This document shows, piece by piece, positions 35,648-54,564 of a DNA stretch of 64,000 nucleotides (within the stretch, counting starts at the first letter, position 1; the number at the start of each line of letters is the position of its first letter). The translations under genes were made by a program, and so were the position numbers. The notes under the pieces are model-generated. The model saw nothing but the letters and a program-made list of their open reading frames with translations, was not told where the DNA came from and searched no databases. The stretch is from an uncultured delta proteobacterium (GTDB taxonomy: Bacteria; Desulfobacterota; Desulfobacteria; Desulfobacterales; B30-G6): the NCBI GenBank assembly GCA_963823335.1, contig CAWGLD010000003.1:64001-128000 (forward strand). The letters run 5' to 3'.

Positions 35648-35650
35648 TTT

Positions 35651-36517: not shown

Positions 36518-36542
36518 TGGGTCCTTACACCTTAAGGTATTT

Positions 36543-37412: not shown

Positions 37413-37419
37413 TCTATTG

Positions 37420-37458
37420 AAGGGTCCAAGGGGTCGAGGATTCCAGGGTCCGAGTGAA
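37420..37458 (+). repeat. Family C octamer arm fragment
   Basis: AAGGGTCCAAGGGGTCGAGGATTCCAGGGTCCGAGTGAA. Confidence 0.65.
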
Positions 37459-37517
37459 AAAAAGTTAAGCATTAGCGCTAACTGTTCAAAAGTTATATGG
37501 GGATGAATGGTAACTTT

Positions 37518-39488
37518 ATGAAAACATATCAAAATTTATTGAAAATTGTCGTGGTTTTTTCAATGTTGCTTCTGCTGTTGCAACCTGCAGTTGGTGCTGA
37601 AAACAAGATCGGCCAGAATGGTAGATTGGTATCGATCGATTTCAACAGTGTCGATCTCAATGTTCTGATCAAATTCATCAGTGAGCTCACCGGCAAGAAT
37701 TTTGTTATCGACCAACGCGTGAAGGGGAAAGCCACCATCATTTCACCTTCCAAGATATCTGTTGCCGAGGCGTACAAGGTATTTGAGTCGGTTCTCGAAG
37801 TCCATGGATTTACCACCATACAGGCAGGCAAGATCATCAAGATTGTTCCGTCTCCAGATGCGCGATCAAAAAATATCGAAACACGACTCAGGGAGGAGTC
37901 CGGTGTAGCCGCAGACAAAGTTGTAACCCAGCTCATCCCTCTGAAATATGCCGCTGCATCTGAAATCAAGAAACTGTTTGCCCCTCTGGTATCCAAAAGC
38001 AGTATCATTCTCGATTATCCGCCTACCAATACCCTGATCGTGACGGATGTCTATTCGAATATCCAGCGCCTGACCAAGATTCTGGACGCCATCGATATTT
38101 TGAAGTCCGGTCTGGAATTAAGCATTGTGTCACTGGCTTACGCGGATGCCAAGGAGATGGTAAAAACACTCGATTCCATCTATAACGTTGCGGCGTCGAA
38201 GTCCAAAAAAGATGCCGACCAGACCAATATTATCAAGTTTGTTGCCGATGATCGCACGAACATACTCATCATCCTGGCCAGTGAAGGGAATACCGTTAAA
38301 ATCAAGGAACTTCTCACGCTTCTTGACACGGCCACCCCCAAAGGCAAGGAAAGCATTCATGTGTATTATCTTGAAAATGCCATCGCAGAAGATCTTGCCG
38401 CCGTTCTGGAGGCCATACCCAGCAAGAAAACGGATACTGGATCGGCCAAAACAGCGCCCGTGGTATCGTCAAAGGCGCGGATCACGGCGGACAAGGCCAC
38501 CAACAGTCTGATCATCACGGCTGAAAAAGAAGACTACCAGGCACTGGAGGCGGTGATTCGCAAACTCGATATTCCCCGGGCCATGGTCTATATCGAATGC
38601 CTCATCATGGAGGTCGATGTCGAAAAGGATTTTCTCCTGGGGACCGAATGGATTATTGGTGAAAAGTTTCGTTTTAACGGGGACTCCTACGGTGGCACGG
38701 GTGGTTTCAGCGGGGGCGATCCAGGATATTCCAACCTGCGGGGTCTTTCCGGAGGCCTTACGGGAATCGCGTCCTATCCCCCAGGCTATTCCATGGGGGT
38801 GTTTGGGGAATCCATCAGTGTGGGTGGTGTAACCTTTCCGAGTCTGGGAGCCGTTGTCCAGGCTTACAAAAGAGACAAGGACGTCAACATCCTTTCGACA
38901 CCACAGATTTTGACAACGGATAACCAAGAAGCCACCATCAATGTGGGCAAAAATGTTCCCTACCAGACACGATCTGCGGCTGAATCCGGCACCGAAACAT
39001 ACAGCTCCTATGAATACAAAGACGTGGGAATCATACTGAAAATCACACCCCACATCAGCCAGGACAGATTTGTGCGTCTCACCATCAACCAGGAGGTGAC
39101 ACAGCTCGATGATTTGGCTACGACCACGGCGGACCGACCCACCACATTCAAACGGACCATCGATACCACGGTGATTGTCAAGGACAAAGAAACGGTGGTC
39201 ATCGGTGGTCTCATCGATGACAAGGCGACAGGAACGACGTACGGGGTGCCTTGCCTGGGAGATATTCCCATTATCGGGTGGATGTTCAAGACAGATAATG
39301 ATGCCATGGAAAAAACGAATCTTTTTGTATTTCTGACACCCCGGGTGGTGGCCAACCCGGCCGAGGCCCAAGCATTATACGAGATGAAAAAAGAACTGAT
39401 CGAAGAAGCCGAAAGAAATCAAGAAGGAAAGACGATGGAGGAGGAGCATCAGGAAGACGTGGATGCAATTGATGCACTTAAAGAATGA
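37518..39488 (+). CDS. gspD: Type II secretion secretin D
   Basis: Signal peptide, repeated TNxLI N-domains, LDIPRAMVYIE, STPQILT, VIGGLI, LFVFLTPRVV. Confidence 0.95.
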   Translation: MKTYQNLLKIVVVFSMLLLLLQPAVGAENKIGQNGRLVSIDFNSVDLNVLIKFISELTGKNFVIDQRVKGKATIISPSKISVAEAYKVFESVLEVHGFTTIQAGKIIKIVPSPDARSKNIETRLREESGVAADKVVTQLIPLKYAAASEIKKLFAPLVSKSSIILDYPPTNTLIVTDVYSNIQRLTKILDAIDILKSGLELSIVSLAYADAKEMVKTLDSIYNVAASKSKKDADQTNIIKFVADDRTNILIILASEGNTVKIKELLTLLDTATPKGKESIHVYYLENAIAEDLAAVLEAIPSKKTDTGSAKTAPVVSSKARITADKATNSLIITAEKEDYQALEAVIRKLDIPRAMVYIECLIMEVDVEKDFLLGTEWIIGEKFRFNGDSYGGTGGFSGGDPGYSNLRGLSGGLTGIASYPPGYSMGVFGESISVGGVTFPSLGAVVQAYKRDKDVNILSTPQILTTDNQEATINVGKNVPYQTRSAAESGTETYSSYEYKDVGIILKITPHISQDRFVRLTINQEVTQLDDLATTTADRPTTFKRTIDTTVIVKDKETVVIGGLIDDKATGTTYGVPCLGDIPIIGWMFKTDNDAMEKTNLFVFLTPRVVANPAEAQALYEMKKELIEEAERNQEGKTMEEEHQEDVDAIDALKE

Positions 39489-39501
39489 TCAGAAGAGTCA
39501 T

Positions 39502-41262
39502 ATGAGAACACCACTTACCCAAATTCTGAAACTACACTGCCATGTCACCGATAGTGACATTCAGGACGCCCTCAGGATCCAGGCAGAAAAAGGCGGCGAC
39601 ATCGGCAGCATACTTAAGATGAAAAAGGTGATCTCTGAAAAGCAGCTTTTGAAGGCCATTGGCCTCCAGTATGATATCCCTTTCTGGGCAAAACTGCCTC
39701 TGGAGGCCATTGGCAAAGATTTTGCCGAGCAGGTACCAAGCCCTTTCTTGAAAAAGCATCAGATCGTACCCCTGGAGAAAAGGCGCCAAAATCTTGTGGA
39801 CATCGCATCCGGTGAGTTTCCGGACGTCTTGGACATTGATGCGGACTCAGGCAGTGACGGCATTATTATCGCCACCAACGATCCCGACAATTTTCAGCCC
39901 ATGGACGATCTTGCCCGGCTTCTCGGCATCGATACCTATGACATTGTACTGGCACCAAAAGATGAAATCATCTCCGCCATCAACCTTTCCTACGATTTCA
40001 GCAGAGATTCTGCAGAACAGCTTGTTCAGAACATGGAAGAAAGCGGCAGCATGATTATCAGTGAAATAGAAGATACTGCTGATCTTCTGGACGATACCAG
40101 TGATGCACCCATCATTAAGCTCGTCAACCATATTATCTCGCAGTCCATCAAGGCCAGAGCCAGCGATATTCACATCGAACCTTATCAGGATAGTTTTAAA
40201 GTCCGATACCGGGTCGATGGTATTCTGTATGACCTGCTCACGCCACCCAAATGGATTCAGGCCTCCCTTATTTCCAGAATCAAGGTGATGGCCAAAATGA
40301 ACATTGCCGAGAAACGGCTTCCACAGGATGGGCGCATTAATCTGAAGATCGGGAATCAGGAAATTGATGTGCGTGTGTCCACGATTCCAACCTCATTCGG
40401 CGAAAGGGTTGTCATGCGGTTGCTGAACAAGACGAGTTCCCTGATGAGGCTCAGCGACCTGGGGCTGGATACGGAAATGCTCGCGATGTTGAAAAAGCTT
40501 GTAGCCTCGCCCAACGGCATGATTCTGATGACCGGGCCCACAGGGAGCGGCAAGACCACAACCTTATACGCGGTGCTTTCCTCCATTAATTCTCCGGATA
40601 TCAACATCATCACCATCGAGGACCCCATTGAGTATCAAATCAACGGTATCAGCCAGATCCAGGTGAACCCCAAAATTGACCTGACCTTTGCCAGGGGGCT
40701 GCGCTCCATTGTCCGACAGGATCCGGATGTGGTGCTGGTGGGTGAAATTCGTGATTATGAAACCGCCGAAATCGCGGTCCAGTCCGCCCTGACAGGACAC
40801 CTTGTGTTTTCGACACTCCACACAAACGATTCGGCCGGTGCCATCACGCGGCTGGTGGACATCGGTATCGAACCGTTTTTGATTTCATCATCCATCATTG
40901 CCGTTGCCGCCCAGCGGCTGGTAAGGGTGCTCTGCGAAGACTGTAAGGAGTTACACCATCCGGATGAGGTCATGCTCATGACCATCGGTATTCCAAGCTC
41001 AACAACTAATGGCACCGAGATTTACAAGGCAGTTGGTTGTGAGAAATGCTTCCACACGGGCTACCGGGGACGTATCGGTATCTATGAGTTGATGCTGATG
41101 GGCCAGGAATTAAAAGGCCTTATTCTCAAATCGTATGATGCGAACCGTATTATGGAAGAAGCCAGAAAACTGAACATGGTCAGCCTGCGGCAGGACGGTA
41201 TCCAAAAAGTGCTAAGGGGTATCACCACAATTGAAGAGGTTCTCAGGGTGACACAGAAGTGA
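39502..41262 (+). CDS. gspE: Type II secretion ATPase E
   Basis: ASDIHIEP, GPTGSGKTT, RQDPDVVLVGEIRD, TGHLVFSTLHTND, CxxC..CxxC; start uncertain (ORF open from 39463). Confidence 0.96.
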   Translation: MRTPLTQILKLHCHVTDSDIQDALRIQAEKGGDIGSILKMKKVISEKQLLKAIGLQYDIPFWAKLPLEAIGKDFAEQVPSPFLKKHQIVPLEKRRQNLVDIASGEFPDVLDIDADSGSDGIIIATNDPDNFQPMDDLARLLGIDTYDIVLAPKDEIISAINLSYDFSRDSAEQLVQNMEESGSMIISEIEDTADLLDDTSDAPIIKLVNHIISQSIKARASDIHIEPYQDSFKVRYRVDGILYDLLTPPKWIQASLISRIKVMAKMNIAEKRLPQDGRINLKIGNQEIDVRVSTIPTSFGERVVMRLLNKTSSLMRLSDLGLDTEMLAMLKKLVASPNGMILMTGPTGSGKTTTLYAVLSSINSPDINIITIEDPIEYQINGISQIQVNPKIDLTFARGLRSIVRQDPDVVLVGEIRDYETAEIAVQSALTGHLVFSTLHTNDSAGAITRLVDIGIEPFLISSSIIAVAAQRLVRVLCEDCKELHHPDEVMLMTIGIPSSTTNGTEIYKAVGCEKCFHTGYRGRIGIYELMLMGQELKGLILKSYDANRIMEEARKLNMVSLRQDGIQKVLRGITTIEEVLRVTQK

Positions 41263-41274
41263 TGAATTCGTAAA

Positions 41275-41442
41275 GATGAACGTCCAACATCGAACGCTTA
41301 ACATCGAACATCGAATGAAAAAGAATATTGAACCCACGGGGAATGCGCTCGCTGCTGCTGTTCAATACCGACGTCTGTTTCTTCATCTTTCAAATTCAGC
41401 ATTCGATGTTGGACGTTCGATGTTCGATGTTCATTCTTTTTT
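41275..41442 (-). repeat. Repeat family B composite with a shortened A core
   Basis: Reverse complement matches the arms of 9289-9536 and 21188-21410. Confidence 0.88.
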
Positions 41443-41458: not shown

Positions 41459-42403
41459 TTGTATCGACAAGATAGGATTGGGCGCAGGATCGTCTTTTTG
41501 CTGGCGATGACCCTGCTTCCCATTTTTGCCAATTTATCCTCTGCGGAAACAACCGTTAGCATAGATGCGGATATGCAGTTTCAGTATGCGGAACAGCTGT
41601 ATTCCCAGAAAAAATATATGATTGCCGTCATCGAATACGAACGGTTTGTCTACCTGTTTCCAGGGGATGAGCGTGTGTCTGAATCCAGATATCAAATGGG
41701 CATGGCCTACTACTCAGAAAGGCGGTATATAGAGGCCATCCAGTCTTTCAGTGCTTTGATGGAGACAGAAGATGTGGGGCTGGCCTATCATTCCCGGGCT
41801 TTCTTCATGACCGCGGAGAGTCAGTTGAGGCTGGGGCGGCGCTCATCAGCGCTGACAACCCTTTACAACCTTGTGACTTTCTCAAAGGATACGGATGTGC
41901 AGGACGAGGCCAATTATCGTATCGGCTGGATTTTCCTCGAAACGGCTGACTGGGAAAAAGCCCGAACCTATTTTCAAGAGATCAGCGATCGGAATCATGT
42001 AAAATACCGCCTGGCCGATCTGCTCAGAGGTCTTGAGAGTGCCGGCGACATCCATCACAAAAGCCCGGGCATGGCCGGTGCCCTGGCCATCCTTCCCGGA
42101 GGAGGTTATCTCTACTGCAACCGGCCCCGGGATGCCCTGATCTCCTTTCTGTTGAACGGCGGCCTCATCTATGCTGCTTATGAAGCCTTTGACAATGAGA
42201 TGTACGCCCTCGGCGGCGTTATCTCTTTTGTGGAAATCGGGTTTTATTCCGGCAGTATCTACGGTTCCATCTCCAGCGCCCACAAATACAACCGGGATCA
42301 GGACAGGCGGTTTATCGATGGTCTCAAGCAAAACCTGAAGATCAACCTGTCTTCACGGCCCGAAAACAAGGGGCTCGAACTGTCGCTTCGGTATTGTTTT
42401 TAA
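41459..42403 (+). CDS. Exported tetratricopeptide-repeat protein with a C-terminal membrane segment
   Basis: TPR-like helices, KSPGMAGALAILPGGGYLY followed by TM helices; the first ~60 codons of the called ORF derive from repeat B, so the start is placed at TTG 41459 (uncertain). Confidence 0.75.
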   Translation: MYRQDRIGRRIVFLLAMTLLPIFANLSSAETTVSIDADMQFQYAEQLYSQKKYMIAVIEYERFVYLFPGDERVSESRYQMGMAYYSERRYIEAIQSFSALMETEDVGLAYHSRAFFMTAESQLRLGRRSSALTTLYNLVTFSKDTDVQDEANYRIGWIFLETADWEKARTYFQEISDRNHVKYRLADLLRGLESAGDIHHKSPGMAGALAILPGGGYLYCNRPRDALISFLLNGGLIYAAYEAFDNEMYALGGVISFVEIGFYSGSIYGSISSAHKYNRDQDRRFIDGLKQNLKINLSSRPENKGLELSLRYCF

Positions 42404-42612
42404 TTGCCGAGGACACGCAGACAGTCCTGGGGCAGGCGGTGGGTACCTTTGTCTTCCAGACTCACTTCCACCAGGGCCTCTGGGTCGTTGATTGCGGTGT
42501 CCGGATCCGTGATGATGCCGTGGCAGCCGATATAATCGTCCATGTAGCTTTCCCAGCCTTCATCATCGGATTTACGGAAGACTTCCACGTGCTGACCCCT
42601 TCGAAATATCAT
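42400..42612 (-). CDS. Small acidic hypothetical protein
   Basis: AAGGAG RBS; 70 aa with an SH3/KOW-like beta pattern. Confidence 0.65.
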   Translation of the reverse strand: MIFRRGQHVEVFRKSDDEGWESYMDDYIGCHGIITDPDTAINDPEALVEVSLEDKGTHRLPQDCLRVLGN

Positions 42613-42642
42613 TGGCGGTCTCCTTGATACAATTCCTTCTAG

Positions 42643-42718
42643 TTGAACCGAAAAAGCGAGCGCATTCCCCGTAGGTTCTGCCGTTCGGCAGTGCTTCGCA
42701 TGCTGCGAGGTTCTTCAA
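42643..42718 (-). repeat. Repeat family A copy
   Basis: Exact reverse complement of 21273-21348 by eye. Confidence 0.92.
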
Positions 42719-42736
42719 AAACCCTGTTTCATCAAG

Positions 42737-44893
42737 TCAGATGTGTGAAACGGGCATGCCGGTTTGAGTGCCCGTTTTTCGGGCGCACATTTTACAAAGT
42801 GTCTGCACAGATGCTACCTGCCCGGTTGTTTTAAACCTGTTACCGATATAATCCAGATACTTGGCAGGGCCGACCACGGCGCCACACGAACTGCAGAGGA
42901 TCAGTTCCTGGCGGTTCAAGACAGTACCGCAGAGCGAGAGAATCCTTTCACCATCTTTGTCCTCTATCTGCATGGCGTCGTTGGGGCAGTTTTCCGCGCA
43001 GGCCCCGCAGGCGATACAGCGTTCCTGGGTCAACCTGAAATCTGTTTTTACAGGATGATCAAAGTCATAGTAGCCCATCTGCAGTGCATCGATTTTCATC
43101 TTGTCCCGGCAGACACTTACACAATCCCCACATCGCCGGCAGATATCACAGCGAAGGCATCTGCGGGCCTCCTCCCTGGCCACGCTCTCGGAATAGCCCA
43201 ATTCGACCTGCTGATAGGTGGTACGCCGTCTTTCGATATTCAACAGTGGCATTTCAGGTCGTTTCAGGATCATTTTCGTGGTGGCAGGGACCTCGATAAA
43301 ATCGGTATTTGCACGGCGAACCGGTACCGGCGGCATCTTCGGCTGTGGTAAGCCTGAAAGGTAGCGGTCGATAGCATTGGCTGCCCGTTTCCCGCCACCA
43401 ATGGCTTCGATGACCGTGGCCGGGCCGCTTACAGCATCACCCACGGCAAAAATGTCGGGCTGAGACGTGGTCATGTTGGCCATATTGACATGAATGGTGC
43501 CGCGGCGGGTCCATTCAATTTCACCAAGTGATTCCATACAGTCCCGGTCTACATACTGTCCAATGGCAGGGATGATCACATCGGCTTCGATATCGTGGTC
43601 ACTCCCTTCAACGGGTGTGGGGTACATCCTGTCGCTGTCCTTTTTTTTAACCAGTTTGGCCCGAATGCAGCGCAGGGTGTTGATCCTGTCGCCCTCACCC
43701 ATGATTTCCACTGGAATGGTCAGCAATGCCAGGTGGACACCTTCTTCCTCGGCCTGCTCCACTTCCTCCTCATCTGCGGGCATTTCCCGGCGTGTCCGCC
43801 GGTAGGCGATGGTCACCTCCTTGCATCCGAGCCTCAGGCAGGTTCGGGCCGCATCGATGGCAACATTACCCCCGCCGATGATCACGGCTTTCTTGCCGGG
43901 GGCGTGCCGATGGCCCATGGCTACGTTTTTGAGCAGATCGATGGCGTCTATGACCTGGGGGAACGTATTCTCTCCGGGGATGTTCAGTTTGAAAGCTTTG
44001 TGAGCACCGATGGCAAAGAGGAAAGCCGAAAAATCCTCCTTTTTCAAATCTTCGAAGGACACATCATGCCCAAAACGGGTATTATATACAAATTCGACCC
44101 CCAGGTCTTCGATCATGGCAACTTCCCTGTCAATCACCTCTCGGGGGAGTCTGTAACGCGGTATTCCCACCATGGTCATGCCACCGGCCATGGACAATGC
44201 CTCGAGCACTCTCACACTGTAGCCTTTGAGCGCCAGATAGTAGGCGGCACTCATGCCGCCGGGGCCGGCACCGATGATACAGACCTTTTGATGTTTGTCC
44301 GGCGCCTTTTCAGGGTTTTGGTACTGCCCGTCAGACAGGGCTTTCTCTGCCGCGAATGCTTTAAGAAATTTGATGGAGACCGGCGTATCGATGCGGCCCC
44401 GCACGCACATGAATTCGCAGGGTCGCGTGCACACCAGGCCACACACCCAGGGGAAGGGATTGTCCTTGCGTATGACCTCTATAGCCTCTGCATCTCTGCC
44501 CATGCCGATCAGGGTGACATATGTCGGCACGTCAATTCCTGCCGGGCAGGCCATTTGGCAGGGTGCCGGGGTAAGCTTGATGCAATCCCCGGTGGCGCAG
44601 TTACGGGTCTTGATATGACTTTGGAATATCTCGGCGTGTTTTTCCAGTGTGGTGCCGATCTTGTTTTTGATCTCGATACCCACCGGATCCGCCCTGTTTT
44701 GATCCAGTTCATCCAGGCGGCTGTTGACTGCCGGTATGTGGTCACGGCCTGCCATGCCCCAGGCAACTTCCCGTAGCAAATTCAATATATCTTCCAGGAT
44801 ACGACGGGTCCTGGGTTCTTTGACACTACCGGAGTCAAGGGATGCTTTTATCTCTATTATGGTGCCGTGCACGGGGCAGGCTTTTGCACTCAT
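42737..44893 (-). CDS. GltD-like FAD/NAD(P)H oxidoreductase with extra Fe-S domains
   Basis: CQMACPAG...CGLVCTRPCEFMC, IIGAGPGG, GIPRYRLP, GGGNVAID, YRR, EARRCLRC, C-terminal ferredoxin motifs. Confidence 0.9.
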   Translation of the reverse strand: MSAKACPVHGTIIEIKASLDSGSVKEPRTRRILEDILNLLREVAWGMAGRDHIPAVNSRLDELDQNRADPVGIEIKNKIGTTLEKHAEIFQSHIKTRNCATGDCIKLTPAPCQMACPAGIDVPTYVTLIGMGRDAEAIEVIRKDNPFPWVCGLVCTRPCEFMCVRGRIDTPVSIKFLKAFAAEKALSDGQYQNPEKAPDKHQKVCIIGAGPGGMSAAYYLALKGYSVRVLEALSMAGGMTMVGIPRYRLPREVIDREVAMIEDLGVEFVYNTRFGHDVSFEDLKKEDFSAFLFAIGAHKAFKLNIPGENTFPQVIDAIDLLKNVAMGHRHAPGKKAVIIGGGNVAIDAARTCLRLGCKEVTIAYRRTRREMPADEEEVEQAEEEGVHLALLTIPVEIMGEGDRINTLRCIRAKLVKKKDSDRMYPTPVEGSDHDIEADVIIPAIGQYVDRDCMESLGEIEWTRRGTIHVNMANMTTSQPDIFAVGDAVSGPATVIEAIGGGKRAANAIDRYLSGLPQPKMPPVPVRRANTDFIEVPATTKMILKRPEMPLLNIERRRTTYQQVELGYSESVAREEARRCLRCDICRRCGDCVSVCRDKMKIDALQMGYYDFDHPVKTDFRLTQERCIACGACAENCPNDAMQIEDKDGERILSLCGTVLNRQELILCSSCGAVVGPAKYLDYIGNRFKTTGQVASVQTLCKMCARKTGTQTGMPVSHI

Positions 44894-44905
44894 TGTTTCA
44901 CCTAT

Positions 44906-45694
44906 TTATGTCACCGGTTTGTTTCCATACATTTTTGCAAGCTTGGGCGCAGTCAATCTCAGATTTTTCCGGTAGTAGAGTTTGCTGCAGGTCGGGCAGT
45001 GCCGGTGTTCTTCTTTTTCCTCTGGATGTTGATCGTCAACATGTTTGACGTGTTCCAGGAATTTTGTGGTGGTATACAATTTGCCACAGATCTGACAAGG
45101 CTCGAGTGTGTGTCTACCCACGATTTCATCCCTGACCATAACCGTTCTTATGTTGCCATCGTCTTCATACCGGATGGCTTTGGTGGGGCAGACGTTGGTG
45201 CAGGTCAGACAGCCAATGCATTCGTCCGTTCCTGATGGACTGACATAGCTTCGTCCCTCTGTTTTGATCATTTTCAGCGCTTTTGCCCCGATGATTTCAG
45301 AGCAAACCCGGATACAGAGCCTGCAGCGGATACATCCGTCGGGTATGATTCCTGTTGTCAAGCCGAATTCCCGGCCGACCTTATGGATGGCTTCGGAATG
45401 GGGTGCCAGTTTCAAGAGGTCTCCGATGGCGGTATTTCTCATCTGGTGCACCATGGCACTTTCCGTGGTGATTTGCAGACCTTGCACTACCTTGATGGCG
45501 CATGAGAGCCTGGTGCGTATGGGTTTGTCCTTTTCTCTTACCTCCACGACGCAAAGCTTGCATGCTGCTGCCGGTGTGAGGGAGTGATGGAAGCAGAGAT
45601 GTGGCACCCGGATGCCATTGTCACTGAGCACGAGCAGGAGCCGTTTCCCTTCTTCAGCCTTGTGTTCCACACCGTTGATGATTATTTGAACCAT
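44906..45694 (-). CDS. [2Fe-2S]/[4Fe-4S] protein (NuoG/hydrogenase N-terminal-like)
   Basis: PHLC...ACKLCVVE...LSC, CIRCRLCIRVC, CIGCLTCTNVCP, CQIC..CPTC; start at MVQIIING. Confidence 0.88.
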   Translation of the reverse strand: MVQIIINGVEHKAEEGKRLLLVLSDNGIRVPHLCFHHSLTPAAACKLCVVEVREKDKPIRTRLSCAIKVVQGLQITTESAMVHQMRNTAIGDLLKLAPHSEAIHKVGREFGLTTGIIPDGCIRCRLCIRVCSEIIGAKALKMIKTEGRSYVSPSGTDECIGCLTCTNVCPTKAIRYEDDGNIRTVMVRDEIVGRHTLEPCQICGKLYTTTKFLEHVKHVDDQHPEEKEEHRHCPTCSKLYYRKNLRLTAPKLAKMYGNKPVT

Positions 45695-45708
45695 GATGTT
45701 TCCTGGTC

Positions 45709-46230
45709 TTACCCTAACGTGGCCGCGCCCTTGGTGGAGGCCATGGCATGGGCATAGCGTGTGCGTTTCATGGCCGGCATTTTTTCCGTGACATTGAAGG
45801 TGAGACAGTGCGTGGTGCAGACGGTCACACAGGCGGGTTTGAGACCCTGGTCGATCCGATCCATGCAGTAATCGCATTTGACGACTTTTCCCTTTTCCGG
45901 ATTCCATTGCGGGGCGCCCCAGGGACAGGCGGAGATACATGTTTTGCAGCCCACACAGAGATTGTGGTCAACGAAAACAATGCCGTCCTTTTCACGGCGC
46001 TGCATGGCACCGGTGGGGCATGCAGAGACACACCACGGGTTTTCGCAATGAAAACAAGGCATAAAAATAAAGGACGCCCTTGGTTTGCCGTTAAAAAATT
46101 CGGGTCCCACCGTAATGATCTGGCAGGGCCGGGTTTCCGGCGGAAGTGTTTTGTTTATTTTGCACTGAATTTCACATGAATGGCAGCCGATACACTTTTG
46201 CTGGTCTTGCAGTAAAAAGTACTTGCTCAT
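45709..46230 (-). CDS. DmsB/PhsB-type four-cluster Fe-S subunit
   Basis: CIGCHSCEIQC, CFHCENPWCVSACP, CVGCKTCISACPW, KCDYC..PACVTVC. Confidence 0.92.
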   Translation of the reverse strand: MSKYFLLQDQQKCIGCHSCEIQCKINKTLPPETRPCQIITVGPEFFNGKPRASFIFMPCFHCENPWCVSACPTGAMQRREKDGIVFVDHNLCVGCKTCISACPWGAPQWNPEKGKVVKCDYCMDRIDQGLKPACVTVCTTHCLTFNVTEKMPAMKRTRYAHAMASTKGAATLG

Positions 46231-46302
46231 TATTTTCCTCCCTGATCCAAATCGCTTTTCAGGACAATTATATTTTTATGATGGTTCCTGTTTGAGGTGA
46301 TG

Positions 46303-48387
46303 TTATACCGGCGTCACCTTGACGAATGTGTCATGCAATGCCGGGCTGCCGCCGATTGTATCCATCAGACTTTCCTGAAGCAGGGCGTCGCTGACACCTT
46401 TCCGGCAGCTTCGTGACGCGTTGCCGGCTTCATGTCCAAAACCGTGCAGCATGAATACGGTTTCCTGGTGTATCAGATCGGTTGCCTTAACCGTGATTTG
46501 CCCCTTGCCCACACTGGATGTCACTTCCACCTTGTCACCATTGCTGATACCGAGTTCAGCAGCACGCACGTTGTTCATCCAGAGAACATTTTCAGCACAC
46601 AGTTCGTTCAGATAGGGGTTGTTCTGTGTGGACACATGGGTGTGCAGGGCGATGCGACCCACCACGAGCCGGAAACGATCTTGCGGCGGTCTTGGTACAG
46701 GCGTATAGGCAGGGAAAGATTCAAACCCGGCATCCTCTAGGAGGGAAGATTTGAATTCAATCTTTCCAGACGGTGTTTTAAATTTGAGTCCCTCTTTTCG
46801 ATCCCAGAAAATCTGCTTTTTCCCGTATGCCACAAAGCCTTTGGCATTGAAATCCTCTGTTTTGAAGCCAGTACCTTCCAGTTGCCATTCCAGCAGTTCA
46901 TCCATGCTTTGATAGGGGAAAAATTTGTCTGTCCCCAGGCGTTCTGCTATCTGTTTCAGAATCATGGCGCCGTCCCTTGTATCGTAACGGGGTGCAACAG
47001 CCTGTTTGCGCAGAAACATCTGCGGTTTTAAGCCGTTGGCCTGTTGGATGCAGTCGGTTCTTTCGAGATAGGTGGATTCGGGAAGAACAACGTCCGCGTA
47101 CCAGGCGATATCGCTGTAATTGATGTCGATGGCCACGATCAGATCTAGTTTGTCCAGGGCCTTTTTGGTCAGGGTGGCATCCGGAATCGACCCGATCGGG
47201 TCGAAGCGATAGGCGATAAAGGCTTTGATAGGGTAGGGATCCTGATTCAATATGGCTTGCGGAAGCATCTGGCCGACACCATGGTTGGGGTCCGGCAGGG
47301 GAAATTCTTTGGTTCCCACCTTGTCGAATCGAGGCACGTCAATTTTAGGAAACTTCTGCTCGGTGAGCTTCCGGGCTGGCTTCCCGCCTTCTTCACCAGG
47401 GCCTTTCTTGAAGAAAACACCACCTTTGGTTTCAAGACTGCCCATGAGGGCGTTTAATATCAAAATGGAACGTCGGAAATAAATTTCGTTTTGATGACTG
47501 GCGCCACGGTACCCATAATGGAAAACCACCGAGGGTTTCTCTTTGGCAACTTCTCTGGCCAGTTCTCTGATCGCCGAAGCGGAAATGCCGGTTTCGTCCT
47601 GTGCCCATTCAGGGGAGTAGGGGTTGACAAAGTCCTGCAGCTCTTTCAAGCCAACCACCCACCTGTCCACAAAGGCAGCGTCGTAGAGCCTTTCATTCAA
47701 AATGACATGAATCAGGGCATAGTTCAGGGCCAGATCCGTTCCCGGACGTATCATCCAGTAACGATGCGCTTTGGTGGCCGTGACGGTTACCCGGGGATCT
47801 ATGTAGGTCAGCTTGGCACCCTGTTCCAGAGCATACATCAGGTTGTTGACCTCTTTAACAGAAATCGACTCAAAAATATTTCGGCCATACAGGACAATCT
47901 GCTTTGTATTCTTGTAGTCCACGCCCACCTGCCCATCTGCAAAACCGAACAATGAGCGACAGGCCGTATTTACGGACCCTTTGCAGAGCGCATCATGGGT
48001 AAAGTGATTCGGTGATCCGATGGCTTTCAGAAATGTCTTGCTGACATGGGTGGCCAGCTGGGTCCGTTCGCCGAGTACGACACTGTGCCCGCCGTGCTTG
48101 TCAATAATGGATGAAAGTTTTTTGCCTACCATGTCCAGCGCTTCATCCCAGCTTGCTTTGCGCCATTTACCTTCCCCGCGTTTACCCACCCTGATCAACG
48201 GTGACTGCAGCCGCTGGTCATCATAGAGCAGACTGGTACCGGCCGCCCCCCTGGGGCAGAGACTACCTTCCATACCGGCCACATGCGGATTACCCTCTAT
48301 CCAGGTTACCTGCCCATCTTTGACTTTAACTTTGATGGGACAACGAATCGAGCACATAAAGCAGAGACTGTATACCTCTTTTTCCAT
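46303..48387 (-). CDS. Molybdopterin oxidoreductase catalytic subunit, PhsA/PsrA-like, no Tat signal
   Basis: CFMCSIRC...GSLCPRG, SWDEAL, GSPNHFTHDALC, RPGTDLAL, ADVVLPESTYLER, C-terminal HGFGH; GGAGG RBS. Confidence 0.9.
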   Translation of the reverse strand: MEKEVYSLCFMCSIRCPIKVKVKDGQVTWIEGNPHVAGMEGSLCPRGAAGTSLLYDDQRLQSPLIRVGKRGEGKWRKASWDEALDMVGKKLSSIIDKHGGHSVVLGERTQLATHVSKTFLKAIGSPNHFTHDALCKGSVNTACRSLFGFADGQVGVDYKNTKQIVLYGRNIFESISVKEVNNLMYALEQGAKLTYIDPRVTVTATKAHRYWMIRPGTDLALNYALIHVILNERLYDAAFVDRWVVGLKELQDFVNPYSPEWAQDETGISASAIRELAREVAKEKPSVVFHYGYRGASHQNEIYFRRSILILNALMGSLETKGGVFFKKGPGEEGGKPARKLTEQKFPKIDVPRFDKVGTKEFPLPDPNHGVGQMLPQAILNQDPYPIKAFIAYRFDPIGSIPDATLTKKALDKLDLIVAIDINYSDIAWYADVVLPESTYLERTDCIQQANGLKPQMFLRKQAVAPRYDTRDGAMILKQIAERLGTDKFFPYQSMDELLEWQLEGTGFKTEDFNAKGFVAYGKKQIFWDRKEGLKFKTPSGKIEFKSSLLEDAGFESFPAYTPVPRPPQDRFRLVVGRIALHTHVSTQNNPYLNELCAENVLWMNNVRAAELGISNGDKVEVTSSVGKGQITVKATDLIHQETVFMLHGFGHEAGNASRSCRKGVSDALLQESLMDTIGGSPALHDTFVKVTPV

Positions 48388-48484: not shown

Positions 48485-48500
48485 AGCAATTATCATACCA
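48485..48500 (-). promoter_or_regulatory. Sigma-54 promoter (-24/-12) for the molybdoenzyme operon
   Basis: Minus strand TGGTATGATAATTGCT with correct GG-N10-GC spacing, ~100 nt upstream of the start. Confidence 0.7.
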
Positions 48501-48888: not shown

Positions 48889-48904
48889 TGGCATATTGCT
48901 TGCT
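48889..48904 (+). promoter_or_regulatory. Sigma-54 promoter (-24/-12) for the tauE operon
   Basis: TGGCATATTGCTTGCT, 80 nt upstream of the ATG. Confidence 0.75.
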
Positions 48905-48983: not shown

Positions 48984-50129
48984 ATGGCAAAAAAAATTTT
49001 TAGTGTGTTACCGATCCTTTTGATGGTCCTGACGCTTTCAATGCCGTTTGTCACGGCAAATGATGTATTTGCGGACAAGCTGTCAGATGCCATCGCCAAG
49101 ACGCCCCAGGGCAGTGATAAGGGTCAGATCGACCCTGAGGCCCAACCCGGGTTTCTTGGAATACCCGGCGCGCCGAGTATCAACATGATCATCGGTCTGG
49201 TGTGGGCGATCTGGGTGGGGTGGATTTTTTCAACAGTTGGCGCTTTTGGCGGAATCATGGCCGGCGTGGGACATATGACCATCTATGGCCTGGGGGCCTA
49301 TGCAAAAACCTTCAAGGACACGTCGCCGCAAATGAACAAATTCGTCACCGACAGTATCCGTGTATCCAACCAGTGGCTTGTGGGTCTTTCGGCCCTGGTG
49401 TCCAGCGTCAATTATTACCGGCAAAAGCGACTGGTGCCTGCCCTGGGTTTGTTTCTGGGCAGCGGTGCGCTCTTTGCGACACTCCTGGTGGTGTTTACAA
49501 CGGCCGGTAAACTCAAATTTTCCCAGTACCAGGGGTGGTTTGGATTGTGTGTTTTCGTCATCGGCGGTTTTATGATCTACGAAATGTCGCCCAAGGGTCA
49601 GGCTACCAAAAAAGCAGCCGCAGAAGCAGCCAAGGCTTTCGAAGGTACCATCAAAGGCAAAGGCAAGATTGAAGACCAGGGTGTAAAAACGTTGAGCTGG
49701 AGTCTGAAAAAAGTCGAAATCTCTTTTTTCGGTCAGACCTTCAGTTTCAGTCCTATTTGGGCCTTTGTGGGCGGTTTCTTTATCTCGGCCCTGGCGTCAT
49801 TTCTGGGTATCGGCGGTGGGTTTCTTTATGTGCCCTTTTTGACCAGCGTTGTCGGACTTCCCATGTTTGTGGTTGCAGGAACGTCGGCGCTCTCTGTTTT
49901 GATCGGCATGATCTTCGCCATTTTCAACTTTATGGTTTTAAAAGGGGTCATGGTATACTGGCCCATGATCGGCGCCGAGTTGATCGGTATATTTATCGGA
50001 TCCATGATCGGGCCCAGAACGGGTAAATACATCCCGGCCAAGGTCCTGAAGGGCATTTTCATCGCTCTGGCGATCTACATCGGACTTCGCTATACCATGA
50101 GAGGCTTTTTCGGGATCGCCATGCTGTAA
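48984..50129 (+). CDS. TauE/SafE-family sulfur-compound transporter (long form)
   Basis: STVGAFGG, FLGIGGGFLYVPFL, AGTSA motifs; AGGAGG RBS. Confidence 0.87.
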   Translation: MAKKIFSVLPILLMVLTLSMPFVTANDVFADKLSDAIAKTPQGSDKGQIDPEAQPGFLGIPGAPSINMIIGLVWAIWVGWIFSTVGAFGGIMAGVGHMTIYGLGAYAKTFKDTSPQMNKFVTDSIRVSNQWLVGLSALVSSVNYYRQKRLVPALGLFLGSGALFATLLVVFTTAGKLKFSQYQGWFGLCVFVIGGFMIYEMSPKGQATKKAAAEAAKAFEGTIKGKGKIEDQGVKTLSWSLKKVEISFFGQTFSFSPIWAFVGGFFISALASFLGIGGGFLYVPFLTSVVGLPMFVVAGTSALSVLIGMIFAIFNFMVLKGVMVYWPMIGAELIGIFIGSMIGPRTGKYIPAKVLKGIFIALAIYIGLRYTMRGFFGIAML

Positions 50130-50189
50130 AAGCAGAATCCCCATTTCCCTGAAAATACCTGCCAGGGTTGTCAAGGGGATCATACAACA

Positions 50190-50232
50190 ACCCGAATATG
50201 CCACGAGATTGACTTTCGTGGCATATTCGGGT
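50190..50232. repeat. Perfect 17 bp inverted repeat (REP-like hairpin)
   Basis: ACCCGAATATGCCACGA, 9 nt loop, TCGTGGCATATTCGGGT. Confidence 0.75.
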
Positions 50233-50284
50233 AAACAGCCGTATACGAATCGCGGCATAAAGTACCTAGCAGACGGGGTGAGGC

Positions 50285-50851
50285 ATGCAGCCTTTTTATG
50301 ACAACTTTCTATATCATGCAGATGGATTTCTAATCGGTTTTTACCGCTTTACCGGCCATCCGTTTCTGGACTATTTGGTGGGAACCATGTGTCTGGCCCT
50401 GTTATGTGTATTGGTGGGGGAAGTAACGGTTTCCCTGGCCATTCGGTTCAACCAGCGCTACATCGATGAAATGGCTCAAGAAATGAATCAGAAAGAAAAA
50501 ATGTCCATGGCAGCCTACCAGGCAGGCGACAAGCCCGGCTACAAGGCGCTGAACAAGCAGGCCACCGATGCGTGGGGCAAGCATTTTTTCACCATGGTCG
50601 GTTATTCGGCCGGCATGTTGTGGCCCATACCCTTTGCACTGGGATGGATGCAAACCCGTTTTCATGGCGTAGATTTTGACCTGGCCTTTCCACTGTCACT
50701 CCTTTTTGGAAAAACAGTCGGCTATCTTTTCACATTCATTCCAATATATATTCTCTCCAGAATTGTTTTTAAATACATGCGCCCATATTTACCATATTTC
50801 AGGGGGGTTCAGAAGAAACTCGACCAATGCGCGTCCAGAAACGCTTCTTGA
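50285..50851 (+). CDS. Hypothetical membrane protein
   Basis: TM helix, helical soluble segment, two further hydrophobic segments; GAGG RBS. Confidence 0.78.
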   Translation: MQPFYDNFLYHADGFLIGFYRFTGHPFLDYLVGTMCLALLCVLVGEVTVSLAIRFNQRYIDEMAQEMNQKEKMSMAAYQAGDKPGYKALNKQATDAWGKHFFTMVGYSAGMLWPIPFALGWMQTRFHGVDFDLAFPLSLLFGKTVGYLFTFIPIYILSRIVFKYMRPYLPYFRGVQKKLDQCASRNAS

Positions 50852-50893
50852 TGTTTGGACCCAGCCTTATTATACGCAGACTGATTCGCTTTA

Positions 50894-51019
50894 ATTGTTC
50901 TACAAACCGCGTGCTAAGCACGCGGTTCCGAACCTAAACGTCCGGGGACGTGCCGTCTCCTGATCTTTTACCGCTTTGCGGAAAAATGAAAGCCACCCGT
51001 TTCACGGGTGGTCGTTTAC
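50894..51019 (-). repeat. Repeat family E (IS200/IS605-end-like multi-hairpin element), copy 1
   Basis: Aligns over ~126 nt with 61632-61758; terminal CCACCCGTGAAACGGGTGG hairpin. Confidence 0.8.
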
Positions 51020-51030
51020 TCGAAAATTCC

Positions 51031-51522
51031 ATGAGAAAAACGCCCTTCATTCAAATCAGATCGATTCTGTTGATTGTCTGGCTGGTCGTAATAATGTTCC
51101 CCGTCCCGGTTGCCGCCACCCAGGGGCACAGCGGTGTCGAAGGGGTGTACGTGCACCAGCTGGCGCATCTTTATTTCATTTTTTCCATGGGAACCCTGAT
51201 TTACTGGATACGCAGACGGGATCTGGTCCGTGAGAAAGGCTGGCGTTACATCCAGTATTCAGCCCTCTTTTTTATTCTGTGGAATATCGATGCATTTGCA
51301 GTGCATTTCCTCGATGAGCAGATCAGCGCCGCGGTGGTGACCAAGCAGGATCTTTTTCATATTCAAATATCCACCGACGAGGGCTTGGAGTGGATCAGAT
51401 ATTTCTATTATCTGGCCAAGCTGGACCATTTGCTCTGTGTTCCTGCCATGATTTTTCTTTATCTTGCACTTAAGAGCCTTCTGAGCGAATCTCCAACGGG
51501 CGATAAAAGGAGCCTGTCGTGA
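51031..51522 (+). CDS. Hypothetical membrane protein coupled to the histidine kinase
   Basis: Signal-like N-terminus plus about 3 TM helices with His residues; GTGA overlap with the kinase start. Confidence 0.72.
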   Translation: MRKTPFIQIRSILLIVWLVVIMFPVPVAATQGHSGVEGVYVHQLAHLYFIFSMGTLIYWIRRRDLVREKGWRYIQYSALFFILWNIDAFAVHFLDEQISAAVVTKQDLFHIQISTDEGLEWIRYFYYLAKLDHLLCVPAMIFLYLALKSLLSESPTGDKRSLS

Positions 51523-53039
51523 ATGTGTTTCCTTTTTTACCTGTCGTTCTGGTGGACATGGCCGGTTCTTTTCTGATGATCGTCTTGTCGATAATGTGCG
51601 TTCATCTGTCTCGGAAACTCAGGAGACGTGATACGGGAAACATTTTATGGAACTTTCTTCAGTACGTCAGTTATGCCTTGATGGTGTTCGCTGTTTCCCG
51701 CTCGGCCGGGCACATCCTCAAACAGGTATTGGTTCTGTATTCTTATCAACACATATGGCAGAAAATCAGTCCGTTCAGCGGTGCCATCAATACGTTCACC
51801 TTTATTGTGGTGGGCTCTTTCACGCTGTTTTTTGAAAGAACCTGGAGTATCTATCAGAAAATTGCCGAAGATAAACAGGCCCTGGTGTCCGCTCATGCGG
51901 AGTTGTTGTATCTCAACCAGAAGCTTGAAAAATTAGCTGACATTAGAACCCGGGAACTAGTTCGTTCGGATCAGAAATACCGCCGGATATTTGAGGTATC
52001 AAAGGATACGATCCTGGTAACGAAAAAAGACGGCATGATCCTGAATCTGAATCCCTCGGGATACAAACTGCTAGGTCTTGATGGAAATCGGGAAGATGGA
52101 ACACTGCAGGAGAAGTATTTTCAAGATTGGCTGGCCATGGATGATGCTTGGAAAAGACTTTCTCAGGCCATCGCTGATGAAGGTTTTATCGAAGGTGAAG
52201 AGCTCGATTTGAGGGTCGGTAAGGGGCAATCGAAAAAGGTTCTGCTGAGCGCCAGTGTGGCAGAGGCTTCTATGGAGGATGGGGAGACCATTCATTTTCT
52301 GATAAAGGATATCGAACGGCAGCACCAGATGAAAGAACAAATGATGCAAGCGGACAAACTTGCATCGATCGGTGAACTGTCATCCGGGATCGCCCATGAA
52401 ATAAACAACCCCCTGAATGTGATTCTTGGTTATACCCAGTTGCTGTTGCGTAGCGAAGTCAAAGCGTCCGATCGCCATGCCGATCTCAAAACCATTGAAA
52501 AACACGTCAGAAACTGCAAATCAATTGTAGAGGATTTATTGAGTTTTGCCAGGAAATCGAAAACGAGAAAAGACAGGGTTCATATCGAGAGCATTGTTGA
52601 GAATGTTATTAAGTTTGTCCAGCAGCATTCAAATTTTGAAGACATTAGGATGGAAGGTACCTACGATCGAAACATACCGCCGATGATGCTCGATGAAAAG
52701 AAAATCAAACAGGTTCTGATAAACCTGCTAATGAACGCGATTCACGCGGTGGACCGCAAGGGATGCATACGAATATCCACTGAATTGGACGTGGATTCGA
52801 ACAGGATATTTGTCCAGATTTCCGACGACGGATATGGTATCGAAAAAAATAACATATCGAAGATTTTTGACCCCTTTTTCACGACCAAGCCCACCGGAGA
52901 GGGCACAGGATTGGGGCTGTCGGTGAGCTATGGCATCATCAAGGATCATGGCGGAGATATCCTCGTGGATAGTGAACCGGGAAAAGGTTCGATCTTTACG
53001 ATTGTGCTGCCCATGGAAGGAAAGGATCAAGGGAGATAG
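51519..53039 (+). CDS. Membrane-bound PAS sensor histidine kinase (NtrB-like)
   Basis: 3 TM helices, PAS domain, IAHEINNPL, NLLMNA, DDGYG, FDPFFTTK, GTGLGL. Confidence 0.93.
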   Translation: MNVFPFLPVVLVDMAGSFLMIVLSIMCVHLSRKLRRRDTGNILWNFLQYVSYALMVFAVSRSAGHILKQVLVLYSYQHIWQKISPFSGAINTFTFIVVGSFTLFFERTWSIYQKIAEDKQALVSAHAELLYLNQKLEKLADIRTRELVRSDQKYRRIFEVSKDTILVTKKDGMILNLNPSGYKLLGLDGNREDGTLQEKYFQDWLAMDDAWKRLSQAIADEGFIEGEELDLRVGKGQSKKVLLSASVAEASMEDGETIHFLIKDIERQHQMKEQMMQADKLASIGELSSGIAHEINNPLNVILGYTQLLLRSEVKASDRHADLKTIEKHVRNCKSIVEDLLSFARKSKTRKDRVHIESIVENVIKFVQQHSNFEDIRMEGTYDRNIPPMMLDEKKIKQVLINLLMNAIHAVDRKGCIRISTELDVDSNRIFVQISDDGYGIEKNNISKIFDPFFTTKPTGEGTGLGLSVSYGIIKDHGGDILVDSEPGKGSIFTIVLPMEGKDQGR

Positions 53040-53042
53040 TCG

Positions 53043-54458: not shown

Positions 54459-54564
54459 GCTGTTTTTTCGTCATTGAAAACCTGGTCTTTTGGGTCAGGT
54501 CAGAGATGTTGGCTATGCCGATGGCGGTAGTTACTCCTGGGATAAATAGGGTATCTAAGATATC

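Follow-up and report, generated by a model that had tools for sequence, protein, structure and literature searches.

A leaderless PsrA/PhsA-type molybdoenzyme and a candidate NAD(P)H input module encoded in one operon of an uncultured member of the Desulfobacterales

A minus-strand operon of five tightly spaced, co-oriented genes (42400-48387) lies in the DNA analysed here, a stretch of 64,000 nucleotides (nt) from an uncultured delta proteobacterium of the Desulfobacterales (GenBank assembly GCA_963823335.1, contig CAWGLD010000003.1, positions 64,001 to 128,000), which is called the window throughout and belongs to a genome of 4.37 Mb in 11 contigs. We consider it moderately probable that the operon encodes a soluble, cytoplasmic, NAD(P)H-dependent reductase of the PsrA/PhsA family that acts on an imported sulfur compound, most likely thiosulfate. 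A soluble enzyme fed by pyridine nucleotides is argued for by four features taken together, namely a cytoplasmic catalytic subunit, an intact Mo site, an iron-sulfur (FeS) partner and a low-potential input module.

In the sulfur cycle of sediments, thiosulfate and polysulfide occupy central positions. Anchorless PhsAB-like proteins have been noted in Desulfurella, Desulfolithobacter and Dissulfuribacter, with the statement that they have never been analysed functionally and that the link to an electron donor is open (PMC9751629, PMC13490349; here and below, papers are cited for those parts of their text that were available). A conserved NAD(P)H-type input module, accompanied by a permease and a regulator, provides a concrete and testable model for this donor question, and the presence of the cluster in cultured Desulfosarcina strains (L023, L026) makes the system tractable. 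If thiosulfate is reduced in the cytoplasm at the expense of a low-potential donor, the energy balance assumed for its respiration and disproportionation would have to be revised.

Catalytic subunit and cellular location

The preliminary description of this DNA had proposed four co-oriented minus-strand genes for one molybdoenzyme complex, and their positions and orientation are confirmed; a fifth, short gene closes the operon. By our estimate the five products together amount to roughly 210 kDa.

46303-48387, minus: leaderless catalytic subunit with Mo/W-bis(molybdopterin guanine dinucleotide) (bisPGD), PhsA/PsrA-like, 694 amino acids (Pfam, NCBIfam and PDB matches)
45709-46230, minus: four-cluster [4Fe-4S] subunit, PhsB/DmsB-like, 173 amino acids, no signal peptide (Fer4_11; DmsB TIGR02951, 138.9 bits)
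44906-45694, minus: FeS protein resembling the N-terminus of NuoG, 262 amino acids (Pfam Fer2_4 [2Fe-2S] and two [4Fe-4S] motifs; no MopB domain)
42737-44893, minus: GltD/NfnB-like FeS flavoprotein, 718 amino acids (Fer4_20, Pyr_redox_2 and a C-terminal Fer4; PRK12771, 503 bits)
42400-42612, minus: 70-amino-acid protein, last gene of the operon, preceded by an AGGAG ribosome site (conserved in tblastn searches)

In the catalytic subunit (hereafter the Mo subunit), which contains GSPNHFTHDALC, Pfam recognises all three MopB domains (Molybdop_Fe4S4, Molybdopterin and Molydop_binding). Its top family model is the thiosulfate reductase PhsA (NF012032, 626.9 bits, the next family reaching 253), with a match that begins at profile position 41, just beyond the leader region, and its top solved relative is Thermus thermophilus PsrA (PDB 2vpw_A), which aligns with residues 3-691 at 410 bits. 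Against this score, acetylene hydratase (215 bits), the arsenate reductase ArrA (182) and formate dehydrogenase (at most 161) were dismissed. The three domains, and nearest characterised relatives that lie inside the PsrA/PhsA/SrrA family, assign the protein to that family. No fused long form of the Mo subunit (1216-3470 amino acids) was found at E <= 1e-100, which is a weak indication, and a scan of the window with Rfam gave no match.

The cysteines of the FS0 [4Fe-4S] cluster (C9, C12, C16 and C44) and Cys135 are invariant in the aligned homologues, both those without a leader (82/82) and those of the twin-arginine translocation (Tat) type (15/15). Cys135, whose counterpart in 2vpw is the Cys of the GSPN...LC segment, is the candidate residue that we take to be the Mo ligand. 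Five other columns (R108, R169, G358, H640 and G679) separate all leaderless from all Tat-type homologues; at residue 640 (about 46468-46470 of the window), every one of the 15 Tat-type proteins has Arg, whereas His occupies this position in at least 95% of the 82 leaderless proteins.

The Mo subunit begins with MEKEVYSLCFMC at an ATG located 7 nt after GGAGG, and the reading frame is open for just six codons upstream of this start, which leaves no room for a twin-arginine leader. The earlier claim that such a signal is missing thus stands. None of the four large operon proteins carries a leader, and export by hitch-hiking is therefore unlikely. Equally correct was the statement that no NrfD/PsrC/PhsC anchor gene is present: on the contig of the window (C3) no NrfD-family or PhsC-like match was found, all four NrfD matches and the sole PhsC-like match of the genome being on contig C1. 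One region of that contig (C1:1540785-1545345) encodes a Tat-leader Psr/Phs-like molybdoenzyme, 27% identical to the Mo subunit, followed by an NrfD-type anchor; soluble and membrane-bound forms therefore coexist in this genome.

Relatives across the phylum were sampled in 401 genomes, of which 139 had a match at E <= 1e-100 and about 98, by hand count, a homologue at least 40% identical. Ninety-two loci were taken and 85 gave an open reading frame (ORF) for the Mo subunit (those dropped were L106, L113, L125, L133, L153, L156 and L173). In all homologues at least 40% identical, the first cluster cysteine comes only a few residues from the start and a twin-arginine leader is missing, while all those at most 38% identical have an RRxFLK-type leader. 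The test for Tat leaders, a twin-arginine pattern followed by a hydrophobic stretch, missed one true leader that was seen by eye (L169, SRRGFLSLAAG), and the labels in the trees carry the results of this test, including that miss. A downstream NrfD/PhsC-like gene was found beside none of 71 sampled leaderless homologues, while in that sample 10 of the 13 homologues of the Tat type have an NrfD/PhsC-like gene, or one with at least seven transmembrane (TM) segments, alongside (hand tally), and both enterobacterial PhsABC loci (plasmids of E. coli and Salmonella) have leader and anchor gene. Two 'ANCHOR' labels in the trees, on L099 and L100, do not denote NrfD; the gene in L100 encodes an MFS/ATG22 transporter. 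The preliminary description had expected homologues to do without a membrane anchor. This holds for NrfD/PhsC-like genes downstream of the Mo gene, with some exceptions to the wider expectation: an NrfD-like gene is found immediately upstream in L149 and L150 and at a distance of three genes upstream in L158, and eight distant loci precede nuo membrane genes.

In a FastTree phylogeny of 102 rows, all 82 proteins without a leader fall into a single clade (SH-like support 100), and an IQ-TREE mixture model gave the same result for 35 leaderless rows among 54 (SH-aLRT 100). Neither the Tat/anchor clades nor enterobacterial PhsABC fall within this clade in either tree; in the IQ-TREE phylogeny the leaderless clade takes part in a three-way fork, left unresolved, with enterobacterial PhsA and the Tat/anchor clade. 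The trees, together with the scores of 410 against 215 bits for 2vpw and 627 against 253 for PhsA, agree with the earlier placement in the Psr/Phs clade if the family is taken in a broad sense, in which the Mo subunit would represent a distinct cytoplasmic lineage.

Partner proteins, their conservation and the divergent unit

The partner of PhsB type has 16 Cys that are invariant across 34 orthologues. The NuoG-like gene, separated by 14 and 12 nt from the FeS and flavoprotein genes between which it lies, was assigned to 44906-45694 because the Fer2_4 domain and the orthologues begin at MVQIII and because the longer mechanical ORF (44906-45940) would overlap the FeS gene. Its product matches PDB 9mqx_A, deposited as a 'NuoG-like protein', over its full length (108 bits).

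The flavoprotein consists of a remnant of the C-terminal domain of NuoF, two [4Fe-4S] clusters in a Fer4_20 domain, FAD and NAD(P)H folds, a C-terminal domain with two further [4Fe-4S] clusters and a Cys-rich tail. A Fer4_20 domain with two clusters, and after it the Rossmann folds for FAD and NAD(P)H, make it a member of the GltD/NfnB/DPD type. The motif GGGNVA...YRR, already pointed out in the preliminary description, is indeed present and is invariant in 27/27 orthologues; we take it to indicate binding of NADPH rather than NADH. The N-terminus is regarded as a NuoF remnant because the protein aligns with the C-terminal two thirds of NuoF-GltD fusions found near distant homologues (residues 33-706 are 45% identical to residues 451-1122 of a fusion of 1132 amino acids). 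The GltD-like part matches PDB 9bov_A (389 bits) and 8oh5_C (349 bits), two formate dehydrogenase / molybdopterin oxidoreductase chains, as deposited, that also match the NuoG-like protein. The large subunits of the Stn/Nfn-Bfu enzymes to which these chains belong provide a precedent for wiring NuoG-like, GltD-like and MopB-type parts together. A two-chain complex prediction for the FeS subunit and the flavoprotein scored 0.00 and was counted neither for nor against binding.

The 70-amino-acid gene, present in one copy in the genome, has tblastn matches in 88 loci at 59-93% identity and directly follows the flavoprotein gene in both loci whose coordinates were compared (L023, L039). Its product has no Pfam family; a language-model search offers, as a lead only, small SH3-like chains such as the variable chain of ferredoxin-thioredoxin reductase (score 0.91).

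Homologues of the Mo subunit number in the thousands; those with the 120 best matches are 77-91% identical and 684-714 amino acids long, and relatives are encoded in 548 stretches of species-representative genomes. The best 80 of these 548, termed close loci, come mostly from metagenome-assembled genomes of Desulfobacterales and include the complete genomes of the two Desulfosarcina strains; the counts that follow take in only loci with enough flank. The FeS gene is directly downstream of the Mo gene in 77/77 close loci. The flavoprotein also stays beside this pair, as the preliminary description supposed, since a GltD-like gene of at least 50% identity follows on the same strand in 62/65 (not in L007, L020 and L025), and the NuoG-like gene lies within 8 kb downstream in 52/54 (not in L004 and L072). 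The usual order is Mo, FeS, flavoprotein, 70-amino-acid gene, a CBS-pair protein and NuoG-like gene. In the window and its nearest kin (L001, L002, L006, L017 and L092) the NuoG-like gene has moved forward, and no orthologue of the CBS-pair protein was found in the genome of the window.

Beyond these close relatives the input side is more varied. A GltD-like gene is near 37 of the 71 leaderless homologues sampled at 40% identity or more, and genes of the Nuo membrane complex are near eight. Pfam scans of the neighbouring genes gave four arrangements. The first (A) is that of the window, with a GltD-like flavoprotein. In the second (B; L007, L093), the Mo/FeS pair is followed by NuoE-like, HydB-type NuoF-like (590 amino acids) and NuoG-like proteins, with a GltD-like gene close by. 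In the third (C; L109, L111), NuoF-GltD fusions of 1131-1143 amino acids precede a second GltD-like protein, which carries a CCG domain of the heterodisulfide reductase type in L111 and none in L109. Partners of 1000-1143 amino acids are found beside homologues 48-63% identical in L109:9811-16085, L111:9727-15726 and L135:241-6433; the NuoF-like part (Complex1_51K, NADH_4Fe-4S) is recognised in the first two, and in L135 only the GltD-like part matched Pfam. The recurrence of the input module in other forms within the leaderless clade (L007, L093, L109, L111) is counted in favour of the NAD(P)H-fed reductase.

In the fourth arrangement (D; L138, L140, L141, L146, L149, L150, L158 and L167, all 40-49% identical), the Mo/FeS pair is directly upstream of nuoA, B, C, D, H, I and J, as in L150:1795-9100 on the minus strand, and the cluster contains no NuoEFG genes. 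Desulfolithobacter dissulfuricans has the same order (GF1_30490 PhsA-1, 30500 PhsB-1, 30510 NuoA, 30520 NuoB, 30530 NuoC, in the supplement of PMC9751629), and its NuoA and NuoB were detected only under thiosulfate disproportionation (PMC9751629). In such loci the phsAB-like pair may be an alternative head of a NuoEFG-less complex I. More generally, and only tentatively, the leaderless PhsAB-like pair could be a portable cytoplasmic 'sulfur-reducing head' that is plugged, in different lineages, into interchangeable low-potential sources, be they a GltD-like NADPH module, a possibly bifurcating module of NuoE/F/G-like proteins, NuoF-GltD fusions with a CCG-domain partner or, the most striking case, the 11-subunit Nuo complex lacking NuoEFG. 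In this last form the pair would replace the missing N-module, and the reduction of thiosulfate with quinol, or its reversal, could draw on the proton motive force. The pair would then be the long-sought partner of the complex I without NuoEFG in Desulfobacterota, and the question of the donor of anchorless thiosulfate reductases would be answered as well.

DNA nearly identical to that of the operon occurs in sediment, estuary, aquatic and soil metagenomes (14 study codes). Contigs from four estuary RNA libraries cover parts of each of the four large genes and parts of the divergent unit described below, one of them (X10 record 3, 45634-46125) spanning the junction between the FeS and NuoG-like genes. 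They lend weak support to expression of the operon, since carry-over of DNA is possible and they inform neither on level nor on strand or operon structure.

A conserved unit on the plus strand (48984-55317) lies opposite the Mo operon, and promoter-like sites are found on the sides of both.

48485-48500, minus: sigma-54-type -24/-12 promoter-like site TGGTATGATAATTGCT, 113 nt before the Mo gene
48889-48904, plus: sigma-54-type promoter-like site TGGCATATTGCTTGCT, about 95 nt before the TauE gene (looked for in the window only)
48984-50129, plus: TauE/SafE (TSUP) permease, 381 amino acids, seven predicted TM segments, signal-like N-terminus (Pfam TauE, E 1.1e-20)
50285-50851, plus: small membrane protein, 188 amino acids, two TM segments, accompanying the TauE gene (no Pfam family)
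50950-51522, plus: small membrane protein, 190 amino acids, accompanying the sensor kinase (no Pfam family; conserved before the kinase gene)
51519-53039, plus: membrane sensor histidine kinase, 506 amino acids (HisKA and HATPase_c; conserved nearby in relatives)
53043-54458, plus: NtrC-type sigma-54-dependent response regulator, 471 amino acids (Response_reg, Sigma54_activat and HTH_8)
54565-55317, plus: second TauE/SafE permease, 250 amino acids (Pfam TauE, E 1.3e-48)

Both permeases score well above the PF01925 cut-off of 32.6 bits (74.8 and 166.2 bits). A TauE gene is present in 33/38 close loci with full flanks and near 36 of the 71 leaderless homologues across the phylum; a homologue of the 188-amino-acid protein stands beside TauE in many loci, down to 45% identity of the Mo subunit, and copies of the second permease 71-79% identical are found in L001, L002, L003, L013 and L018. 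In many relatives the TauE permease is 560-590 amino acids long (L023:5120-6889, L039:14722-16416 and others), with an N-terminal extension of about 270 amino acids that has no Pfam family and most of which is missing from the copy in the window. A homologue of the sigma-54 activator at least 50% identical is encoded in 29/38 full-flank close loci, and a sigma-54-like site lies at most 450 nt upstream of the Mo gene in 67/78 relatives, the chance expectation being 0.066 per 450 nt. The NtrC-type activator and the -24/-12 sites suggest sigma-54-dependent two-component control of both operons.

Two other features of the window may be mentioned. Nested inverted and tandem repeats mark the start of an ORF of the tetratricopeptide repeat (TPR) type (41276-41434, 41330-41365 and 42643-42678), and a 36-nt inverted pair, 86% complementary, flanks this ORF of 375 amino acids. 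RNA-library contigs pile up at these repeats, to a summed depth of up to 1216 and with loose ends on both sides, and one RNA contig joins 41332 to 42655 and omits the ORF. These features suggest a short dispersed repeat or a mobile element, and the ORF may vary between strains. A plus-strand cluster resembling those for pili and type II secretion (33648-41262; PilM/PilN fusion, GspC-like PDZ protein, secretin and GspE/MshE-type ATPase) appears unrelated to the Mo operon.

Proposed reaction and alternatives

In the proposed mechanism, NAD(P)H would be oxidised at the FAD of the flavoprotein, and electrons would pass from its [4Fe-4S] clusters through the [2Fe-2S]/[4Fe-4S] clusters of the NuoG-like protein and the four clusters of the PhsB-like subunit to FS0 and the Cys135-ligated Mo-bisPGD. 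There the sulfur compound would be reduced in the cytoplasm, thiosulfate most likely being converted to sulfide and sulfite. The divergent TauE permease and its small partner would import the substrate or export sulfite, and the kinase and sigma-54 activator would switch on both operons via their -24/-12 promoters. The standard potentials of the thiosulfate/(sulfide + sulfite) couple and of NAD(P)H are about -402 and -320 mV, respectively. By our estimate, thiosulfate reduction by NAD(P)H would become feasible if DsrAB held sulfite very low. The organism encodes DsrA (616 bits against a cut-off of 393), and its DsrAB would remove sulfite and thereby pull a reaction that is uphill under standard conditions.

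Thiosulfate is the first choice of substrate because PhsA is the top family model, because a low-potential donor suits a low-potential acceptor, because TauE proteins are linked to sulfite, and because the corresponding proteins of Dissulfuribacter thermophilus rose on thiosulfate. In that organism the leaderless PhsAB-like pair was up with log2 fold changes of 2.45 and 3.51, and the TauE protein and a co-occurring membrane protein with 1.56 and 1.79 (PMC13490349).

Several points weigh against a soluble NAD(P)H-dependent thiosulfate reductase. The Mo subunit misses the cut-off of the PhsA equivalog NF012032 (626.9 against 694 bits) and is only 34% identical to enterobacterial PhsA. The potentials given above favour the reverse reaction under standard conditions. 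That the five operon proteins bind one another is our inference. An input module was not seen in the flanks of 26 of the 71 leaderless homologues, some of which are on short contigs or reflect failures of ORF picking. The G+C content around the operon (window 42001-48000) is 0.50-0.55 as against 0.45-0.50 in the rest of the window, and its history in this genome may therefore be recent. As to substrate, the PsrA/PhsA/SrrA family comprises several specificities that are not separable by sequence (PMC10100899, PMC12998232). Two further observations, compared here by description, concern other organisms: the anchorless PhsAB of D. dissulfuricans is low in abundance on thiosulfate (PMC9751629), and phsAB mutants of Desulfovibrio alaskensis G20 have only mild thiosulfate defects (PMC4215793).

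The alternative that survives best keeps the same soluble NAD(P)H-linked enzyme and changes its substrate to sulfane sulfur, i.e., polysulfide, persulfide or intracellular S0, which would make it a cytoplasmic sulfur reductase comparable in function to NAD(P)H sulfur/polysulfide reductases but with a Mo site of the PsrA type; we regard this as unlikely, though less so than the other alternatives. Its closest solved structure is after all Thermus PsrA, over the full length, and polysulfide (about -260 mV) could be reduced by NAD(P)H unaided. Moreover, an unrelated type of flavoprotein is known that reduces polysulfide with NAD(P)H in the cytoplasm (PMC9431562). However, the conserved TauE/TSUP partner belongs to a family linked to sulfite and sulfonates and not known as a polysulfide carrier, a Pfam scan of the window's cluster showed neither a rhodanese nor a TusA gene, and the only expression data concern thiosulfate.

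Flavin-based bifurcation or confurcation, in which the NfnB-like FAD would split or merge electrons among NAD(P)H, ferredoxin and the Mo site, appears rather improbable. Ferredoxin would interact via the NuoG-like protein or the C-terminal ferredoxin domain of the flavoprotein, and either low-potential thiosulfate reduction or, given a sulfur acceptor of higher potential, ferredoxin reduction would thereby be made feasible. The relatives of the flavoprotein do include the bifurcating subunit of NfnI (5jca_L, 253 bits) and the Stn/Nfn-Bfu large subunits (8oh5_C, 9bov_A, 9n5u_A), and the NuoE, HydB-type NuoF and NuoG-like set next to the Mo/FeS genes in L007 and L093 corresponds to the Bfu core (PMC12018979). 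In the window's operon, however, the HydB/NuoF-like flavin mononucleotide subunit and the HydC/NuoE-like [2Fe-2S] subunit are missing, their only homologues in the genome being on contig C5, and the Pfam scan of the cluster revealed no ferredoxin gene. The GltD-like FAD of Nfn-Bfu, furthermore, is described as a remote NADPH site and not the bifurcating one (PMC12018979).

Marginally less probable still is that the enzyme works in the opposite direction, oxidising a reduced compound with NAD(P)+ as acceptor (for instance in forming thiosulfate from sulfite and sulfide), or on another substrate, in the detoxification of selenite, tellurite, arsenate or tetrathionate. The standard potentials favour thiosulfate formation with NAD(P)+, and one member of the family, SrrA, is a respiratory selenite reductase (PMC10100899). 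Having a sensor and a permease of its own would also make sense for a system that meets a toxic oxyanion only now and then. On the other side, the cluster is widespread and highly conserved in lineages of sulfate reducers, with 70-91% identity among the matches and a homologue at least 40% identical in about 98 of the 401 sampled phylum genomes, and this distribution, together with the rise on thiosulfate in one proteome, fits core sulfur metabolism better than detoxification.

That the flavoprotein and NuoG-like protein form a separate co-transcribed enzyme, such as an Nfn-like transhydrogenase, with PhsAB fed by ferredoxin, DsrC or Nuo, is very improbable: binding among the operon proteins is our deduction, GltD-like proteins are common (14 tblastn matches in the genome) and distant leaderless homologues sit before nuoA-N, but the gene order is kept over a wide range of identity (62/65 loci), a single sigma-54 promoter site precedes the Mo gene, and the NuoG-like gene is inserted at short distance between the FeS and flavoprotein genes.

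Comparison with known systems

The preliminary description took the complex to be uncharacterised, and our literature search agrees in so far as it turned up no account of anchorless PhsAB with a GltD-like, NuoG-like or Nuo partner, although subscription journals and supplements may hold more. The link to a flavoprotein appears to be new, while the anchorless, cytoplasmic PhsAB-like proteins themselves were already known (PMC13490349, PMC9751629). In the available text of these two papers, the GltD-like, NuoG-like and 70-amino-acid partners are not mentioned for anchorless PhsAB and no electron donor is named; one of them suggests electrons from sulfite oxidation.

The classical members of the family are PsrABC (2vpw) and PhsABC of Salmonella and E. 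coli plasmids. They share with the window enzyme the catalytic family, the FS0 Cys4 motif, the Mo Cys and a four-cluster FeS partner. In contrast to them, the window enzyme has neither a Tat leader nor a PsrC/PhsC anchor and belongs to a separate leaderless clade, and its proposed donor is NAD(P)H via the flavoprotein instead of quinol. A review lists PsrA, PhsA and SrrA as periplasmic (PMC10100899). A further comparison, by description, is with the PhsAB-like proteins of D. thermophilus and D. dissulfuricans, which likewise lack a C subunit and a Tat leader and are predicted to be cytoplasmic. In D. dissulfuricans, phsA-1 and phsB-1 are followed by nuoA, nuoB and nuoC (PMC9751629), whereas the pair in the window is followed by the NuoG-like and flavoprotein genes.

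Chains of the Stn/Nfn-Bfu (NfnABC) enzymes are the best structural relatives of the flavoprotein and, after 9mqx_A, of the NuoG-like protein. Their MopB-like domain is not known to carry a Mo cofactor, while the Mo subunit of the window keeps all its ligands. Their large subunit (8oh5_C, 9bov_A, 9n5u_A) combines a NuoG-like N-terminus, a GltD-like FAD/NADPH unit, FeS clusters and MopB-type domains (PMC12018979). In Stn/Nfn-Bfu a single polypeptide of about 1170 amino acids contains all these parts and needs HydB/HydC-like partners, whereas in the window the parts are encoded by separate genes and NuoE/F-like partners are missing. Finally, the flavoprotein resembles NfnI, SudAB and GltD in its two N-terminal [4Fe-4S] clusters, FAD and GGGxxA...YRR motif (5jca_L, 253 bits; 2vdc_G, 211 bits) and differs from them by the extra NuoF remnant, the C-terminal di-cluster ferredoxin domain and the Cys-rich tail. 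The partner of these proteins is NfnA/SudB or GltB, whereas that proposed for the flavoprotein of the window is a molybdoenzyme.

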